Shown here: piece after piece, positions 5,119 through 32,000 of the stretch
Position numbering within the stretch: the first letter of the stretch is position 1
How the letters are laid out: every line of letters begins with the position of its first letter
From: Candidatus Baldrarchaeota archaeon
Lineage (GTDB): Archaea > Asgardarchaeota > Baldrarchaeia > Baldrarchaeales > DXJG01
Assembly (NCBI GenBank): GCA_019056805.1
Contig: DXJG01000009.1
Span: forward strand, 93,710 to 125,709
Direction of reading: 5' to 3'
DNA length: 32,000 bases
Program-made: the position numbers and the translations under genes
Notes under the pieces: model-generated
Database searches by the model: none
What the model was told of the DNA's origin: nothing
Seen by the model: the letters and a program-made list of their open reading frames with translations, nothing else

Positions 5119-5984
5119 TAACAAAATCTAAAATATTATTTAAATTTCTCAAAAATAGGAAAACCATAACAAGCCTTGCTATCATTTCAACTTATATCAT
5201 ATTTTCTATTTTTGCTCTCTTTATTGACACATCACAACTATTTTCCACTGAATTCTTTAAACCACCATCTTCCAAACACATACTTGGCACCGACGGCCTC
5301 GGAAGAGACATTTTATTAATTTTAATAGACTACACTCCATATACGATTGCTAGCGCATTCGCAGCAACTCTAATTGCGCTTGTCATCGGTTTAATAGTGG
5401 GTTTAATTTCAGGTTACTATTCTGGTAAATGGTTTGCTAGACTACTAGACAGAATAACAGACATAATCCTTAGCCTACCAATAATTATAGTAATTGGCGT
5501 AATATTTATAGAAGAAGCACCAAACATCATAGGACTCATATTAATAACGGGACTATTCAGCTGGCCTATAACTGCCAAAGCCGTAAGAGGACAAGTACTA
5601 GTAGTTAGAGAAAAAACATACGTAGAAGCTTCAAAAGCCATCGGCACAAGCGACAAACACATAATGTTCAAAGTAATTTTACCCGATGCAGCACCAGTAG
5701 CGGCAGCATCTCTCATATACACCGCCGCCCTAATAGTACTACTCCAAGCAGGATTAGCATTCTTAGGATTCAAATGGACCATTGGAGGAACAGAAGCCCG
5801 CACCCCATACACCTTCACTTGGGGTGGATTCCTAGGTTTCCAAGGAATATTCGCAGCAACAGCAATAGGTGCTTGGTGGGTCATAGTACCCCCAGCTTTA
5901 TGCCTATCCCTTCTAATATTATCCATCGGAATGTTAGGAATCGCAATAAGCGAAACACTAAGCCCAGAACAAAATAGATTCTAG
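5115..5984 (+). CDS. dppC: ABC peptide/nickel transporter permease (OppC/DppC family)
   Basis: PPSSKHILGTDGLGRD, EAA loop YVEASKAIGTSD and WWVIVPP; ATGA overlap with dppB. Confidence 0.9.
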   Translation: MITKSKILFKFLKNRKTITSLAIISTYIIFSIFALFIDTSQLFSTEFFKPPSSKHILGTDGLGRDILLILIDYTPYTIASAFAATLIALVIGLIVGLISGYYSGKWFARLLDRITDIILSLPIIIVIGVIFIEEAPNIIGLILITGLFSWPITAKAVRGQVLVVREKTYVEASKAIGTSDKHIMFKVILPDAAPVAAASLIYTAALIVLLQAGLAFLGFKWTIGGTEARTPYTFTWGGFLGFQGIFAATAIGAWWVIVPPALCLSLLILSIGMLGIAISETLSPEQNRF

Positions 5985-23683: not shown

Positions 23684-26299
23684 ATGGTGCAGATAATAAT
23701 GGAAAAACCTTGGATCAGAGAGACTTTACTCTACGAGAGCTTAGAAAACGGAAAAGTTAGATGTAAAGTTTGCGAAAGAAGATGCATAATAAGCGAAGGA
23801 AAGACGGGATTCTGTAAAACTCGAAAAAACATAGATGGAAAACTATACACCCTTGTCTACGGAGACATATCTTCAATAAGCGCCAACCCCATAGAAAAGA
23901 AGCCTCTATTTCATTTCTGGCCAGGATCAGTCGCTCTAACCGTAGGCACATGGAGCTGCAACTTCACCTGCCCATGGTGTGTTTCACCAGACACCTATGT
24001 GATTAAAAATGAACATGACATAGAAATGATGGGATCTTTAGAAAATTGTTGGAAACATACAAAACTGTTTTCTTATGATGTTTTTTCTAAGAAAATTGTC
24101 AAAGCAGGGATTTTAAATTATTTTAAAATAAATCCATTAATTTTAGGTTTGAAGGTCTACAGAATAGAGACAGAGTGTGGAAGACAGCTAATTGCATCGG
24201 AAGACCATCCCATCTATACCAAGAGAGGTATCCTACCATTGAGAGACGTAAAGATTGGTGACGAAGTTATAATTTATCCCTTCTATCCACTTAAAAATGA
24301 TGCACTCAAAGAAGACTTTACAATAGTTAATGAGAAAGACGTAGAAAAAATAATAAATATCTATCTTCCAAGATCAAACAAAGAATTCATAATTTCAACA
24401 CTACGCAGAAAAGGACTTTTGCCATTAAAAATTTCTAACCCAAAGATTAAGATAATTGCAAGGATACTCGGCTTTTTATTTGGCGACGGATACATTTCAT
24501 TAAGTAAGACTAAAAAGCGAGACAATGCTTATGCTGCCTTTAATGGAAGGACAGAAGATTTATTGAAAATTAAAGAGGATATGACTTTACTTGGATTTAG
24601 TACAGCAAAAATAATCAAGCGAAGAAAAATTTCCAAAGTATATAGGTATGGAGAACTTCACATTATAAATGGTTTTGAAACACGTCTTGATTGTTATTCT
24701 AAGGTGTTTTGCGTTTTAATGATATCCTTGGGGGCCCCTATAGGGGATAAATCCGTTAAACCGTTTAGGATACCAAAGTGGTTATTCAAATCGCCCAAAG
24801 ACGTACAAAGGGAGTTTCTGGCTGCGTACTTCGGCTGCGAATTAGCAAAGCCCCTTGTGAACAAAAGTGGTAAAAACTTTTTCCAACCGAGACTTTCTAT
24901 AAATAAATCAATTGAGTACTTAGATAATGCTTTTGAATTCGTTAGAGATCTAGAAAAACTTTTATCCAATTTCCAAGTAAAAATAAGTTCTATCAATTTT
25001 CACGAGGGAAGCGTTAGAAAGAAGGACGGTATCAAAACAATTACGGTATATGTCCTTTTCAGCAACAAACTTGAAAATCTTATAAACCTCTACGGCAAAA
25101 TCGGATATAGATATTGCAAGGAAAGAGAAGTATTATCAAGATACGTGTTAGAATATCTTCTATTTAAAAAGAAAGAAATAGAAAACAGAAAAAAAGCCTA
25201 TAAATTAGCTGTTTTACTTAAGAAAAAGGGATTCAAACTAAAGGAAATACATGAGAAAGTACACGAACAGGTAAACATAGAAAATTTAGTACTATGGCTT
25301 AATAAAGATATAGACCCAAATAAAATTAAGGGAAGAAAAACGTCTCAAAAGTTTAGTGAATGGCTAAATCAACGAAATAAAGATCTCCCTGAGGGATTAC
25401 TATGGGAAAAAATTGAGGAAAAGGAGGAGATAAGGAACGTTACAGACCTAAGAGATCTTACAGTCGAAAAATATCATAACTTTTTTGCAAACGGATTTTT
25501 AGTTTCTAATTGCCAGAACTGGGAAATAAGTAAGGCTCCTCCTGATCCTGAAAAAGCTAATTATATTTCCCCTGAAAAATTTGTTGAGATGGTTGGTAAA
25601 TATAAGTGTCAAGGCACAAGCATTTCTTTTAATGAGCCTACTTTGCTTTTCGAGTGGAGTTTGGATGTTTTTAAACTTGCTAGGGAGAAGGGATTTTATA
25701 ATACCTTTGTTACGAATGGCTATATGACTTTGGACGCTTTAAAAATGCTTATTGAAGCTGGATTGGATGCTCTTAACATAGATATTAAAGGTTGTAAAGA
25801 TGAGGTATCGCATTTTTGTGGTGCAAACGTTGAGTATGTTTGGCGTAATTGCATTGAAGCTAAACGTTTAGGCGCTCACATCGAAATCACTACATTAATT
25901 GTAACAGATGTTAACGATGACTTAGAATGTCTCCGCAACATTGCTCAGCGAATAGTCAAGGAACTAGGTGAAAATACACCTTGGCACGTAACTAGATACT
26001 ATCCAGCATACAAATATCATGCTCCTCCACCTAAAGTAGAATTTCTTGAAGAAGTTAGGAAGATAGGTATAGAAGAAGGATTGAATTATGTTTATTTAGG
26101 TAATGTGCCAGGACATCCTTGGGAAAACACGTATTGTCCCAACTGCGGTGAACTTTTAATTAAAAGGTACATTTTCGATGTTGTTAATTTCAATTTAACA
26201 GAGAAAAACGAATGTCCAAAATGTGGAGAAAAAATCCCCATTGTTGGAAAATACGTTAAAAGAGGGCTTCTTGACAGATTTAGACAATTTTTAATGTAA
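23684..26299 (+). CDS. amrS: AmmeMemoRadiSam system radical SAM enzyme (PflX-like) containing an intein
   Basis: VRCKVCERRC...GFCKTRKN, NPIEKKPLFHF, CNFTCPW[intein]CQNWEIS, FNEPT, TNGY, NIDIKG, YLGNVPG and TYCPNCG...CPKCG. Spliced product about 360 aa. Confidence 0.92.
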   Translation: MVQIIMEKPWIRETLLYESLENGKVRCKVCERRCIISEGKTGFCKTRKNIDGKLYTLVYGDISSISANPIEKKPLFHFWPGSVALTVGTWSCNFTCPWCVSPDTYVIKNEHDIEMMGSLENCWKHTKLFSYDVFSKKIVKAGILNYFKINPLILGLKVYRIETECGRQLIASEDHPIYTKRGILPLRDVKIGDEVIIYPFYPLKNDALKEDFTIVNEKDVEKIINIYLPRSNKEFIISTLRRKGLLPLKISNPKIKIIARILGFLFGDGYISLSKTKKRDNAYAAFNGRTEDLLKIKEDMTLLGFSTAKIIKRRKISKVYRYGELHIINGFETRLDCYSKVFCVLMISLGAPIGDKSVKPFRIPKWLFKSPKDVQREFLAAYFGCELAKPLVNKSGKNFFQPRLSINKSIEYLDNAFEFVRDLEKLLSNFQVKISSINFHEGSVRKKDGIKTITVYVLFSNKLENLINLYGKIGYRYCKEREVLSRYVLEYLLFKKKEIENRKKAYKLAVLLKKKGFKLKEIHEKVHEQVNIENLVLWLNKDIDPNKIKGRKTSQKFSEWLNQRNKDLPEGLLWEKIEEKEEIRNVTDLRDLTVEKYHNFFANGFLVSNCQNWEISKAPPDPEKANYISPEKFVEMVGKYKCQGTSISFNEPTLLFEWSLDVFKLAREKGFYNTFVTNGYMTLDALKMLIEAGLDALNIDIKGCKDEVSHFCGANVEYVWRNCIEAKRLGAHIEITTLIVTDVNDDLECLRNIAQRIVKELGENTPWHVTRYYPAYKYHAPPPKVEFLEEVRKIGIEEGLNYVYLGNVPGHPWENTYCPNCGELLIKRYIFDVVNFNLTEKNECPKCGEKIPIVGKYVKRGLLDRFRQFLM
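23978..25510 (+). mobile_element. Intein (511 aa) with LAGLIDADG homing endonuclease domain
   Basis: Block A CVSPDT, block B ASEDHPI, block C ILGFLFGDG, degenerate block E FLAAYFGCEL, block F DLTVEKYHNFFANG, terminus VSN followed by Cys+1. Removal restores CNFTCPWCQN. Confidence 0.95.
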
Positions 26300-28248: not shown

Positions 28249-30069
28249 ATGTTGAAACCTGTCTCAATGAAGAAGATTCGTGCAATTATACACGAAAAAT
28301 ATATCGATGACACCATTAGAACGTTAGGAGAACTCGGGGCTGTACACTTAATTGATATGAAAGACAAATTGGAGAAACTTGGGGATAAGATCAAACCTAT
28401 TGAACCGAGTGAACAATACTACAGGATTACAAGCTTATTTTCAAGAATTGAGCGTTTAATAAACGATTTACAAATAAGGAAGGTACCCACCACTAAAAAG
28501 ATCAGCGTACCAAAAGTTTTGTCAGATAGTTTTCTAGACGACTTAGAGAACGAAGTAAAGCAAATCGAAGAACAATATACCAAGATCGTCCGAGAGATCG
28601 AATCATTGAAAGAAAAAGGAAAAACAACAAAAGCAGAAAGCAAAATAAAAGATTTAAGAGAGCAACTTGACAAACTTGCAAGAGAAAATGCATTAAAACT
28701 GCTGGCTTATCACGAAGCCCTTGAAATAGAAAAAGAAGTAGAAGAAAAAAAGACAATGATGGGAAAAACAGAGAAAACATACATTTTTGAAGGATGGGTT
28801 CCCGCCGAAGAAGTGGAAAGAGTTACAAAGAGTCTATTAGAAGTTTCAGAGGGCACCACAATCATTGAAACCATGGGTAATGAAAATCATGAAGAGGAAG
28901 AAGAAAAACCACCAACCCTACTAAAAAACCCTAAAACCCTAGAATCATATGAACGTTTAACAAAAAGCTTCGGAATTCCATCCTACGGTGAGATAGATCC
29001 CACACTTTTCATGGCAATATCATTTCCAATATTCTTTGGTCTCATGTTCGGCGACATAGGACACGGGCTCCTCCTTCTAATAGTATCAATTCTCGGTCTT
29101 ATTGGAAAACGAAAAAACCTAGATCTGGGAGAAATAGGCAATTATGTTATTAACGGAGCACCTCTCCTTTTCTTCTGCAGTATATTTTCCATTTTCTTCG
29201 GATTTCTATACGGTGAATTCTTTGGGTTCTCAATATACCATGAAAAATGGTACATTGCAATCGCGCCGCTACTAATGCCCTTCAGAGATCTCTTAGTAAA
29301 AATATTCTATATATTCGATTTTGATGCAGGAGTAAAAATGTTCACCGACCCAACCTACCATGAATACATCCACCCACCACCCGAAGGTCCAGTTTGGTTC
29401 AGCCCCATGCATCATCCATGGGTCCTTTTCATAATCTCCATCATAATAGGCGCAGTACACCTAAGTTTAGGACTATTTCTAGACATCGTGAATAAATTCA
29501 GACACAAGGAGTACGTTGAAGCCATCTTAGGTCCCGGAGTATGGTTATGGTTCTACATAGGCTTTATATGGATAATTTTCAATAAGGGCATAGTTTTCAT
29601 GAACTGGTTTAAAGAATTAAGCTTTTCAGAACCAGCAAAGCTTGCAACAAACCCAGTTTTCTTCATGTTAATTTTGCCACTTATTATAATGTTTATTGGT
29701 CGAGTAGTAACTGAGGGTCCCATTGAAGGAGGTATCGGTGTTCTAGAGAGCTTAATCGCATCCGTTTCTAACACTATTTCCTATGCTCGTATATTAGCCT
29801 TAAACATGGCTCACGAAGGTTTCGGTAAAACATTCATAACTCTAGGTGGAGTTAATCCGGAGCATGGACTTGCTGCCATCACTCTAAGCCCAATGTTTAT
29901 AATGTCTTTCCTAGTAGGAACACTGTTCATAATGATCATGGAGGGACTTTTATCCTTCATACACACACTTAGGTTACACTGGGTCGAGTGGTTCCTAAAA
30001 TTCTACGAAGGCGAGGGCATAGAATTTCAACCGTTCACAATAAAAAGATATTACACAACTACAAGTTAA
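28249..30069 (+). CDS. atpI: A/V-type ATP synthase membrane subunit I (subunit a)
   Basis: GWVP, PPTLLKNP, PSYGEIDPT, FFGLMFGDIGHG, essential Arg in SYARILAL, and LRLHWVEWF-KFY. Confidence 0.96.
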   Translation: MLKPVSMKKIRAIIHEKYIDDTIRTLGELGAVHLIDMKDKLEKLGDKIKPIEPSEQYYRITSLFSRIERLINDLQIRKVPTTKKISVPKVLSDSFLDDLENEVKQIEEQYTKIVREIESLKEKGKTTKAESKIKDLREQLDKLARENALKLLAYHEALEIEKEVEEKKTMMGKTEKTYIFEGWVPAEEVERVTKSLLEVSEGTTIIETMGNENHEEEEEKPPTLLKNPKTLESYERLTKSFGIPSYGEIDPTLFMAISFPIFFGLMFGDIGHGLLLLIVSILGLIGKRKNLDLGEIGNYVINGAPLLFFCSIFSIFFGFLYGEFFGFSIYHEKWYIAIAPLLMPFRDLLVKIFYIFDFDAGVKMFTDPTYHEYIHPPPEGPVWFSPMHHPWVLFIISIIIGAVHLSLGLFLDIVNKFRHKEYVEAILGPGVWLWFYIGFIWIIFNKGIVFMNWFKELSFSEPAKLATNPVFFMLILPLIIMFIGRVVTEGPIEGGIGVLESLIASVSNTISYARILALNMAHEGFGKTFITLGGVNPEHGLAAITLSPMFIMSFLVGTLFIMIMEGLLSFIHTLRLHWVEWFLKFYEGEGIEFQPFTIKRYYTTTS

Positions 30070-30150: not shown

Positions 30151-30603
30151 CTATACCTCTAGCACATGTTTTAATTCTTGTAGTATAATACATGTTTCAA
30201 TACCTAGAACTCCTGATATTTCCGCTAACTTCTCTCTTATGAAACTATTTAATGTTTCAACATTTGGAACCCTGACTATTAATGCTACACCACACTGTCC
30301 AGCAAGATAATAGGCTTGTTTTACTTCATCAAATTTAACTACTTCTCTAGCTACTGTGTCCAATTTTTCCGGTGACGTAGTAATCCTAACAAATGCATAA
30401 ATATCGTGTCCACTTCTTGAAGCGCTTGTTATAATTGTGAACTTTTTAATAATACCCGCATCGATAAGTTTTTTAACTCTCCTTCTAATAGTTGATTCCG
30501 TTTTTCCAAGCTTCTCTGCAATTTCTCGGAAGGATAATCTTGAATTCTCCCTTAAAAGTTCTATGATTTTTTCATCGATGACGTCAAGCGTATTTTTATA
30601 CAT
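30151..30603 (-). CDS. Lrp/AsnC family transcriptional regulator
   Basis: LDVIDEKIIELLRENSRLSFREIAEKLG-TESTIRRRVKKL...GII HTH plus C-terminal RAM domain; GAGGAG SD. Confidence 0.95.
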   Translation of the reverse strand: MYKNTLDVIDEKIIELLRENSRLSFREIAEKLGKTESTIRRRVKKLIDAGIIKKFTIITSASRSGHDIYAFVRITTSPEKLDTVAREVVKFDEVKQAYYLAGQCGVALIVRVPNVETLNSFIREKLAEISGVLGIETCIILQELKHVLEV

Positions 30604-30687
30604 TATTATTCTCCTCTTTAACCTGGAGGTGTATATGTTCTTCTTGCCTAACTACGTATATTTTATATTTTCATTTTTTATTTTTTG

Positions 30688-30871
30688 CGGCATCTAATGC
30701 GCAAAATAAGGCGATAAAATACTAACTTTTTTAATGTTTTTCGTCATGTAGCTTGCATATAATCGGTAATCGATTGTTTGCATATGCTGAATTACGTAAC
30801 TTTAAATGATTTCACCGCCTAATTACGGCAATTTTTACATAGTAAATATAGGTACCCAGCAAATTTTGCTG
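30688..30871. promoter_or_regulatory. Three Lrp-type 15-bp boxes NN-GCA-N5-TGC-NN (30688-30702, 30826-30840, 30857-30871)
   Basis: CAGCAAATTTTGCTG is a perfect palindrome around its central base; CGGCAATTTTTACAT lies exactly 31 bp upstream; CGGCATCTAATGCGC lies near the lrp promoter. Confidence 0.55.
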
Positions 30872-30962
30872 AAATTGATAATACAAATGCTTATTTTAAT
30901 TTATAATCGTAAAATTTATTAACAAATCTTTTGATAATACCACAGAAAAAGGAGGTAGTCTC

Positions 30963-31403
30963 ATGTTTGAATTATTCTTTGAATATTTGGGTATAACCTT
31001 GTCAATCGGTTTAGCGGCAATAGGAGCAGGGCTAGCAATCTCAAGTGTCGGTAGTTCACTCAGTGGCGCAATAACAGAGAAACCTGAAACTTTCGCAAAA
31101 CTCTTAATTCCGGTGGTCTTAGGAGAAGCTATCGCTATCTATGGTATGTTAGTGTCCTTTATAATCTTAAGCAGTGGAGGAAATCCTGACTGGAGCTTTG
31201 CCTTCAAAGCTTTATGCGCAGGAGCAATTACAGGACTAACATGCCTAGGTGCTGGTATAGGAATAGCTTCAACTGGAAGTGCCATGGCTGGTGCAGTGGC
31301 AGAGGAACCCATGACCTTCAGCAAATCTATGATCACTGTTGTTCTAGCAGAGGCTCTTGCAATATACGGGCTCCTAATAGCATTCATGCTGCTAATACAA
31401 TAA
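30963..31403 (+). CDS. atpK: A/V-type ATP synthase proteolipid subunit K/c (double hairpin, 4 TM)
   Basis: Two repeats ending in IPVVLGEAIAIYG and ITVVLAEALAIYG, with Gly-rich helices; GGAGGT SD. Confidence 0.95.
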   Translation: MFELFFEYLGITLSIGLAAIGAGLAISSVGSSLSGAITEKPETFAKLLIPVVLGEAIAIYGMLVSFIILSSGGNPDWSFAFKALCAGAITGLTCLGAGIGIASTGSAMAGAVAEEPMTFSKSMITVVLAEALAIYGLLIAFMLLIQ

Positions 31404-31435
31404 ATTAAAATTTTTAAGTACTACGAGGGAGGATA

Positions 31436-31663
31436 ATGCGGAGACGTTCAGTAGGGAACAAGAAGGATACCCTAAAAGCATTTAAGGTACTTGGTCTCAG
31501 CACCGAACTTCCTATTATGACCTTCGTCTTAGCTTATATTGGGTATATGGCATTTGGGTGGCAAGCCATTTTACCATTTGGTTTACTAGGGTACTTTCTA
31601 GGAATTATCTCAATGTTTGCAATGATAAGACAGCTAGAAAAAGTTGAAAAGAAGAAATATTAA
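31436..31663 (+). CDS. Small 2-TM protein, AtpZ/ATPase gene-1-like
   Basis: Basic N-terminus, LSTELPIMTFVLAYIGY hairpin, GLLGYFLGII and charged tail; GGAGG SD; located between two proteolipid genes. Confidence 0.5.
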   Translation: MRRRSVGNKKDTLKAFKVLGLSTELPIMTFVLAYIGYMAFGWQAILPFGLLGYFLGIISMFAMIRQLEKVEKKKY

Positions 31664-31906
31664 GTTAAAATATTGTAAAGAATTTTTTCTTCTAACGTTG
31701 GTAAAGTCCTAACTTTAAATAAGGCTACAACATTAAGTAGAAAACATTTCCTGATTTTTACCTTAATTTTTAGTAATTTTACATTCATATCGGAAAGCTT
31801 ATATAGAAGAGCCGAAATTATCTACTGCGAACCTCAAACACCTAAAATTAAGCGTGGAAATAAAAATATTATGCAATTAAACTCTGCATATTTGGAGGTT
31901 AAGTAA

Positions 31907-32000
31907 ATGGAAATGACCGCAACTGCTGTAGCCATATTAGGAGCTTCATTTTCCATTGGTTTTAGTGCTTTGGGCGCGGGTTTGGGAGTAGGATATTCGG
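31907..32000 (+). CDS. Second proteolipid c/K subunit paralogue (5-prime part only, truncated by the window end)
   Basis: GGAGG SD at 31894-31898 then MEMTATAVAILGASFSIGFSALGAGLGVGYS, homologous to helix 1 of 30963..31403 (LGITLSIGLAAIGAGLAISSVG) and to V-type c subunits (GAS...FSALGA..G). Not in the ORF track. Confidence 0.8.
   Translation, partial: MEMTATAVAILGASFSIGFSALGAGLGVGYS

Follow-up and report, generated by a model that had tools for sequence, protein, structure and literature searches.

The window analysed here is a 32,000-nucleotide (nt) stretch from a Candidatus Baldrarchaeota archaeon (C17:93710-125709 of genome G000, which is 91% complete), and it ends inside a membrane-sector locus of an A/V-type ATPase in which two different genes for the proteolipid, subunit c, follow one another. 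The first, c1, is complete and occupies positions 30963-31403 of the forward strand; the second, c2, starts on the same strand at 31907, and its first 31 codons (31907-32000) are contained in the window, whose base 32000 is the last one before a run of N. Positions beyond that base are given in the coordinates of locus L003, which equal window coordinates minus 27290. Both genes are intact, conserved and under purifying selection, and both serve one enzyme. Two distinct intact four-helix rotor proteins for a single rotary ATP synthase are unusual for a prokaryote: to our knowledge, prokaryotic rotor rings almost always consist of one gene product, the known exceptions being the hybrid ring of Acetobacterium woodii and the c/c'/c'' ring of eukaryotes.

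The c1 product is a double-hairpin protein of 146 amino acids (aa) with four transmembrane helices (TM1-TM4). It gave two matches to PF00137 (E-value 9e-33), with Glu in TM2 and TM4 (within VVLGEAIAIYG and VVLAEALAIYG), and the Glu columns were invariant in alignments of 46 and of 48 sequences. The AlphaFold2 model consists of four helices (mean predicted local distance difference test score, pLDDT, 93.0), and in Foldseek searches it reached a template-modelling score of ~0.9 to human and yeast V-ATPase c. These results bear out the initial annotation of this stretch, in which c1 was described as a complete double hairpin with Glu in both halves. Compared with congeners (dS > 1), c1 showed 86% identity within the genus and a ratio of nonsynonymous to synonymous substitutions (dN/dS) of 0.07, and was therefore more constrained than subunit C (0.14) or subunit I (0.10, relative to the congener G001); for the last hairpin of c2 the ratio was 0.11.

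With regard to c2, a GGAGGT motif stands 9 nt upstream of the start codon, and the 31 codons of the window run into 305 N (C17:125710-126014). The sequence of c2 resumes at L003 5016 and ends at L003 5271; after the gap it reads ...SFMILMQI-PIIETADQAYRAF...VVLAEALAIYGLLISFMILMQI up to the stop codon; in this part, the tail of one hairpin continues in frame into a complete PF00137 hairpin (E-value 3e-19; L003 5017-5271) in which the Glu is present. The c2 gene of this genome thus has at least two hairpins. The second c-type gene that the initial annotation had placed at 31907 is therefore real, and its extension past base 32000, which that annotation had called for, revealed a multi-hairpin gene rather than a short single-hairpin one.

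Both edges of the gap fall exactly on 25-nt internal repeats, the signature expected of a repeat-induced assembly break. The 305 N were rejected as the true length of the gap, given that the genome contains nine N runs of odd length, that reading frames break across them, and that two runs calibrated against congener orthologues proved too long: 290 N stood where ~66 nt were expected and 172 N where ~42 nt were expected, i.e., an excess of ~224 and ~130 nt, respectively. On contigs C9, C13 and C17 of this assembly, such scaffold runs break reading frames, so that the frameshifts apparent at gaps are not real. Filling the gap would take 103 nt for a c2 with two hairpins and 331 nt for one with three. 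The calibration of the N runs, together with relatives of 148-157 aa, points to exactly two hairpins and a putative product of ~150 aa; three or more hairpins are less likely on the same two grounds, and c2 falls short of the seven or more hairpins of fused rotors. Two hairpins, each with its Glu, are present in all of the full-length relatives, namely P0078 (150 aa), P0033 (148 aa) and P0088/P0089 (157 aa), and P0196 is another post-gap fragment of the same build as the one found here. The AlphaFold2 model of P0078 is a four-helix bundle (pLDDT 93.4), and the models of P0078 and c1 scored 0.89-0.93 in Foldseek against V-ATPase c and Enterococcus hirae NtpK.

The two hairpins of c2 are almost copies of each other. 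On the metagenome contig L129, the 157-aa c2 gene carries a direct repeat of 171 nt at 96% identity, and the C-terminal two thirds of both hairpins are identical within a species and differ between species (GFGIAYSG, GFAIGQSG, GLGVGYSG), which indicates concerted evolution. In the hairpin tree, an old split between first (h1) and second (h2) hairpins separates the N-terminal helix of c2 hairpin 1 from that of hairpin 2 (support 85/94, from 69 columns only), and c2 is therefore probably a long-established double hairpin whose halves have become partly homogenised rather than the product of a recent tandem duplication. Compared with the L129 gene, the 74-aa c2 found in G003, G001 and 9 of 13 cluster members is shorter by exactly one 249-nt unit, and the junction lies within identical sequence; by this comparison, these records would represent either an assembly collapse or a real unequal crossing-over or deletion. 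A single-hairpin c2 of the G003 and G001 type was discarded for the present genome, where at least two hairpins are found. More generally, c genes with internal repeats become broken or collapsed when short reads are assembled, and the hairpin numbers recorded in many metagenome-assembled genomes may therefore be wrong, the 74-aa c2 records being an example.

That both c genes belong to one enzyme follows from the copy number of the remaining subunits. Subunit I (the stator a subunit; 28249-30069, forward strand, 606 aa, PF01496 E-value 4e-62), which keeps its conserved Arg in the stretch SYARILALNMAHEG, is the only PF01496 locus in the genome and also the only tblastn match. In tblastn searches of the genome, subunits I, C, E and H were single-copy; in the Pfam searches, PF00006 matched two genes, A and B, and PF01813 matched one, D, all three on a different contig. 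Furthermore, all PF00137 hairpins of the genome are at this one locus. Since subunits I, C, E and H and the A, B and D genes are each single-copy, a second ATPase was ruled out. None of the three objections foreseen in the initial annotation was borne out, namely that the second frame is not a proteolipid, that it is a pseudogene or that it belongs to a separate operon with its own subunit I; as the two c-type genes are distinct and intact and only one ATPase is encoded, the mixed ring that it had considered stays in play.

Subunit I lies ~0.9 kb upstream of the c genes, subunit C ~0.3 kb downstream, and H and E within 8 kb. The order of the locus is subunit I, lrp (reverse strand), c1, s75, c2, s69 (reverse), C (reverse), NuoN/M/L/K/J-like genes, H and E, and a NuoABCDHI-like/[NiFe] group-4-like set. 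Subunit C/d is encoded at L003 5602-6666 on the reverse strand (PF01992, E-value 2e-62). The ATPase genes are scattered: Nuo/Mrp-antiporter-like and [NiFe] group-4-like genes are interspersed among I, c1, c2, C, H and E (L003 5602-19064), and A, B and D lie on contig C6, far apart from one another. Among the genomes tested, the subunit I nearest to the present one (44-46% identity) was that of a Hermodarchaeia-like family (f12); identity to a same-order relative was lower, 36-42% over partial matches. Upstream of these genes, the window also encodes an 871-aa radical-SAM protein with an intein (23684-26299, forward strand), in which Intein_splicing covers residues 127-609 and Radical_SAM resumes at 610.

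The pair is confined to one genus of Baldrarchaeia. The order I-lrp-c1-s75-c2-s69-C is repeated in G001, G003 keeps c1-s75-c2-s69-C from the start of its contig, and L129 keeps the c2-C end, so that the arrangement is documented by independent assemblies from three or more species; c1 and c2 were also found on contigs of equal size elsewhere (6926 and 60824 nt). Among five Baldrarchaeia species genomes, both genes were present in three of the four of this genus, the fourth being 82% complete with the region missing. In the one genome of the sister family, the order is s69-C-c and the only c is a single-hairpin protein of the type common among Asgard archaea. Most Asgard genomes sampled have a single c gene. 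In a full-text search of the literature, whose coverage was incomplete, no account of an A-type locus with two c genes, Asgard or otherwise, was found.

Orthologues of c1 at 82% identity or more form four clusters, and the next matches, at ~53% identity, are from Bathyarchaeia. The two proteins share 53-54% identity, the same distance that separates either from Bathyarchaeia. In the whole-chain tree, the c1 clade and the c2 clade were each solid and their mutual branching was a polytomy, so that a sister relationship between them was not retained. The c1 gene holds the ancestral position, given that in Bathyarchaeia and Promethearchaeota (Loki) loci, arranged as I-c(double)-...-C(reverse), the double-hairpin c adjoins subunit I. 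In the hairpin tree, the first hairpin of c1 groups with the first hairpins of the double-hairpin c genes of Bathyarchaeia and Loki. The more divergent copy is c1, whose stem branch in the full-length tree is the longer one (0.52 versus 0.20 for c2), and c2 is nearer to the family consensus. By path length, the hairpins of c2 and the second hairpin of c1 were nearest, outside their own groups, to multi-hairpin Hermodarchaeia-like hairpins, in a part of the tree that is a polytomy.

Regarding the coupling ion, the Na+ signature is defined as E[STQ][STQ]xxY in the outer helix together with Q/E in the inner helix (bioRxiv 10.64898/2026.10.01.756066, section 2.3). This motif is absent from all visible c1 and c2 hairpins, which read E-A-[LI]-A-I-Y and have no Q/E at the inner-helix position; the earlier remark that no Na+ signature is evident thus holds, and because the Na+ ligands are missing, H+ coupling is predicted for this enzyme. 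Each of the two proteins has two hairpins and two Glu at equivalent positions, and two carboxylates per four helices is the synthase-type, not the V-type, arrangement. Among the outer helices, TM4 of c1 is nearly identical to TM2 and TM4 of c2, and the inner helices of both proteins share a Gly/Ala packing pattern, with an inner-helix Gly motif that reads GAGLAISSVGSS in hairpin 1 of c1 and GAGLGVGYSGAA in c2.

Each c gene is preceded by a conserved block. Upstream of c1, an A/T-rich promoter-like block (30885-30926, forward strand) is near-invariant in G000, G001 and G003 within a divergent flanking spacer, and ~100 nt upstream of c2, a block resembling a B recognition element and TATA box (ATATCGGAAAGCTTATATAGAAGAGCC..., 31787-31821, forward strand) is invariant in the same three genomes, again within divergent spacer. 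Conservation of these blocks suggests separate promoters and a transcription start of its own for c2; no Rfam match or leader RNA was found upstream of c2. Between subunit I and c1, and divergent from c1, lies a gene for an Lrp/AsnC-family regulator (30151-30603, reverse strand; HTH_24 and AsnC_trans_reg). The congener G001 has it in the equivalent position, and it is missing at the I-c junction of the Bathyarchaeia and Loki loci examined. A palindrome, CAGCAAATTTTGCTG, in the spacer between lrp and c1 (30604-30962) is not kept in G001 or G003.

Two small membrane proteins accompany the c genes. Directly 3' of c1, a two-helix open reading frame of 75 aa (s75; 31436-31663, forward strand) is kept in G001 and G003 at 73-77% identity with a dN/dS of 0.06; among the loci examined it was seen only in this genus, and it had no Pfam or NCBIfam match. 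Just past the window, between c2 and subunit C/d, lies s69 (L003 5352-5561, reverse strand), a representative of a group of 67-86-aa two-helix Gly-zipper proteins that adjoin subunit C in several Asgard families and on one Bathyarchaeia contig (L003, L015, L018-L020, L045 and L086). A weak match of s69 to PF09527 (AtpZ/AtpI; E-value 0.013) was obtained, and AtpZ/AtpI clusters were among the nearest Atlas clusters of both s69 and s75, at scores below 0.9 that serve as leads only (0.79 for s75). The hhalign comparison of s75 with the s69 family gave a probability of 75%, and s75 is possibly a paralogue of s69. The s69 protein may be an accessory or assembly subunit of Asgard A-ATPases that has so far escaped recognition. 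AtpI itself helps in the assembly of c rings.

Taken together, the reading that we favour, at a probability of roughly 45%, is that c1 and c2 are both rotor subunits of one H+-coupled A-type synthase and are mixed in a single ring, at a ratio set by transcription. Both proteins would enter the rotor that turns against the single subunit I, and each chain, with two proton-binding Glu residues, would act as a synthase-type rather than a V-type rotor subunit. The hairpins of c2 would be held nearly identical by gene conversion, the ratio of c1 to c2 would be controlled transcriptionally, the Lrp-type regulator next to c1 being the obvious point of control, and the products of the small genes that follow c1 (s75) and subunit C (s69) may help in ring assembly in the manner of AtpI/AtpZ. 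The case for mixing is built on the near-identical outer helices, on the inner packing motifs that both proteins share and on a precedent from a Hermodarchaeia-like lineage, in which two different c polypeptides (one of 7 hairpins, the other an N-terminal domain plus 3 hairpins) lie behind one subunit I. Given those outer helices and the common inner Gly/Ala pattern, the sequences present no barrier to co-assembly. Rings of mixed composition are well known from Acetobacterium woodii (PDB 4BEM) and from eukaryotic V-ATPases, and the present locus has in common with them two c paralogues for one a/I subunit.

Several observations weigh against this interpretation. In the mixed rings known to us, the paralogues have different numbers of hairpins or different ion sites; c1 and c2 are equal in both respects, so that a functional reason for mixing them is not evident. 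Separate promoters would suit alternative rings as well as a tunable mixture. The first hairpin of c2 in this genome lies inside the gap, and its Glu is assigned from P0078 and P0088. Finally, the c2 gene of G001 (L048 ~5285-5400) has a one-base insertion, and hence a frameshift, in the repeat region, which reflects either a faulty assembly or, in that strain, a pseudogene.

Of the alternatives, the one that fares best is that c1 and c2 never mix and instead form homomeric rings that are swapped according to conditions, possibly with a different ring size and H+/ATP ratio. A promoter-like block in front of each c gene and a regulator divergent from c1 only would both fit such a switch, as would the different inner-helix Gly motifs of c1 and c2, since changes in this motif reportedly alter the stoichiometry of F-type rings (work attributed to Pogoryelov, 2012). 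Nothing in the two sequences, however, would block co-assembly if both proteins were expressed, the palindrome near c1 is not kept in congeners, and with equal numbers of sites per hairpin a changed ratio would require a putative difference in ring size. We regard alternative rings as rather unlikely. The initial annotation had offered two alternative rings with different ion-to-ATP ratios; the rings themselves are still to be reckoned with, and the different ratios find no support in the sequences.

It is improbable that just one of the two proteins, presumably the consensus-like c2, builds the ring and that the other is a spare or has been repurposed, e.g., for the nucleation of assembly or for a membrane function apart from the ATPase. 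The long stem branch of c1 would agree with such a loss of role, and a single c gene suffices in most Asgard genomes sampled; but c1 is the better conserved within the genus, more tightly so than I or C, it retains both Glu residues and the whole fold, and it sits beside subunit I, where the sole c gene of Bathyarchaeia and Loki is found.

The initial annotation had also proposed the pair as an Asgard precursor of the hetero-oligomeric ring of eukaryotes, i.e., a product of the same duplication as c, c' and c''. The host is indeed an Asgard archaeon, and among solved structures c1 and c2 match eukaryotic V-ATPase proteolipids best, with full-length alignments at 28-35% identity; this likeness is inflated, though, as no archaeal double-hairpin c structure was among the PDB matches. 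In phmmer searches, c1 and c2 both scored eukaryotic c, c' and c'' similarly (E-values from 1e-15 to 1e-20), which leaves the eukaryote-like first helix once claimed for c2 a generic feature. Isolated hairpins of c1 and c2 matched either half of the eukaryotic chains, and an attempt to map h1 and h2 onto the N- and C-terminal halves of eukaryotic c was abandoned on account of inconsistent matches. Moreover, the pair occurs in one genus only, of a class not placed next to eukaryotes in the literature, and each chain keeps two carboxylates, against one in the eukaryotic proteins. In the absence of a paralogue preference, with inconsistent mapping of the hairpins and a distribution at genus level, a direct precursor link to the eukaryotic rotor proteins is not supported by the sequences, and we consider a shared duplication very improbable.

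Still less credible is that c2 results from a mis-assembly or from a contaminating contig of another organism: the gene is cut by the scaffold gap and its frames on the two sides disagree at the face-value N length, but N runs are estimates, frames break at other gaps too and both calibrated gaps were overestimated, the gap edges coincide with the internal repeats, and the same gene order recurs in several independent assemblies.

If c1 and c2 do mix, this would be the first A-type (archaeal) ring made of two different four-helix proteolipids, a prokaryotic parallel to the eukaryotic ring that arose independently in an Asgard lineage, tuned by an Lrp-type regulator and with each c gene paired with an AtpI/AtpZ-like helper; for this fuller picture the odds are against, and we put it forward tentatively. 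The rings of A. woodii and of eukaryotes changed the understanding of coupling ratio and ring assembly. The Baldrarchaeia pair offers a simple natural system in a relative of the eukaryotic host lineage, from which one could learn whether heteromeric rings evolve readily, what purpose they serve if every ion site is retained, and by what means their composition is controlled.

Among known systems, the eukaryotic V-ATPase ring (c, c', c''; 6wlw, 6o7u, 6m0r) resembles the present case in that paralogous four-helix proteolipids work against one a subunit, and it provides the best matches of c1 and c2 in sequence and, at template-modelling scores of ~0.9, in fold; its chains carry one carboxylate each, whereas c1 and c2 carry two. 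The F1Fo hybrid ring of A. woodii (4BEM) shares with this locus the presence of more than one c paralogue in a prokaryotic rotary enzyme, one of them with four helices, and 4bem_J is a fold match of both the c1 and the P0078 models. That enzyme is F-type and Na+-coupled, and its operon encodes a double-hairpin c1 that lacks one ion site together with the single-hairpin c2 and c3. The Baldrarchaeia enzyme, in contrast, is A-type and shows no Na+ motif, and its two paralogues are both four-helix proteins with both sites, apparently in separate transcription units.

Within archaea, the double-hairpin c of Bathyarchaeia and Loki is like c1 in its position downstream of subunit I, in the asymmetric layout of h1 and h2 and in keeping both Glu residues, at 45-53% identity; those loci have one c gene and no lrp between I and c, and Baldrarchaeia add s75 and c2. 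Methanothermobacter provides an example of the methanogen-type duplicated c. In this type, two nearly identical hairpins hold two sites (bioRxiv 10.64898/2026.10.01.756066), much as c2 fuses near-identical hairpins with a Glu in each; there it is the sole c gene, whereas c2 coexists with a divergent four-helix paralogue. Another Asgard family (L042, G006:C14; L043, G017) has two complete adjoining membrane sectors, I-C-c with a single-hairpin c and I-c-C with a double-hairpin c, and hence two ATPases, unlike the two c genes of one enzyme described here.

Hermodarchaeia-like c subunits (L044 5875-9318 in G014, L045 6519-9762 in G024, and P0001-P0041) have 15 hairpins (1147 aa), ~8 hairpins (613-644 aa), or 7 hairpins accompanied by a second chain in which 3 hairpins follow an N-terminal domain of 310 aa. 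In P0042 and P0048, PKD domains (PF00801, PF18911) are fused to PF00137 hairpins, giving rotor subunits with an extracellular domain. The Hermodarchaeia-like rotors resemble c1 and c2 in that a Glu is kept in each hairpin, as in every hairpin checked in G014 and G024, and in belonging with the nearest subunit I tested, and in one of their lineages, too, a single subunit I is followed by two different c polypeptides. In these rotors, and in that of Methanopyrus kandleri (13 hairpins), a single chain accounts for a whole or half ring, while c2 stops at two hairpins.

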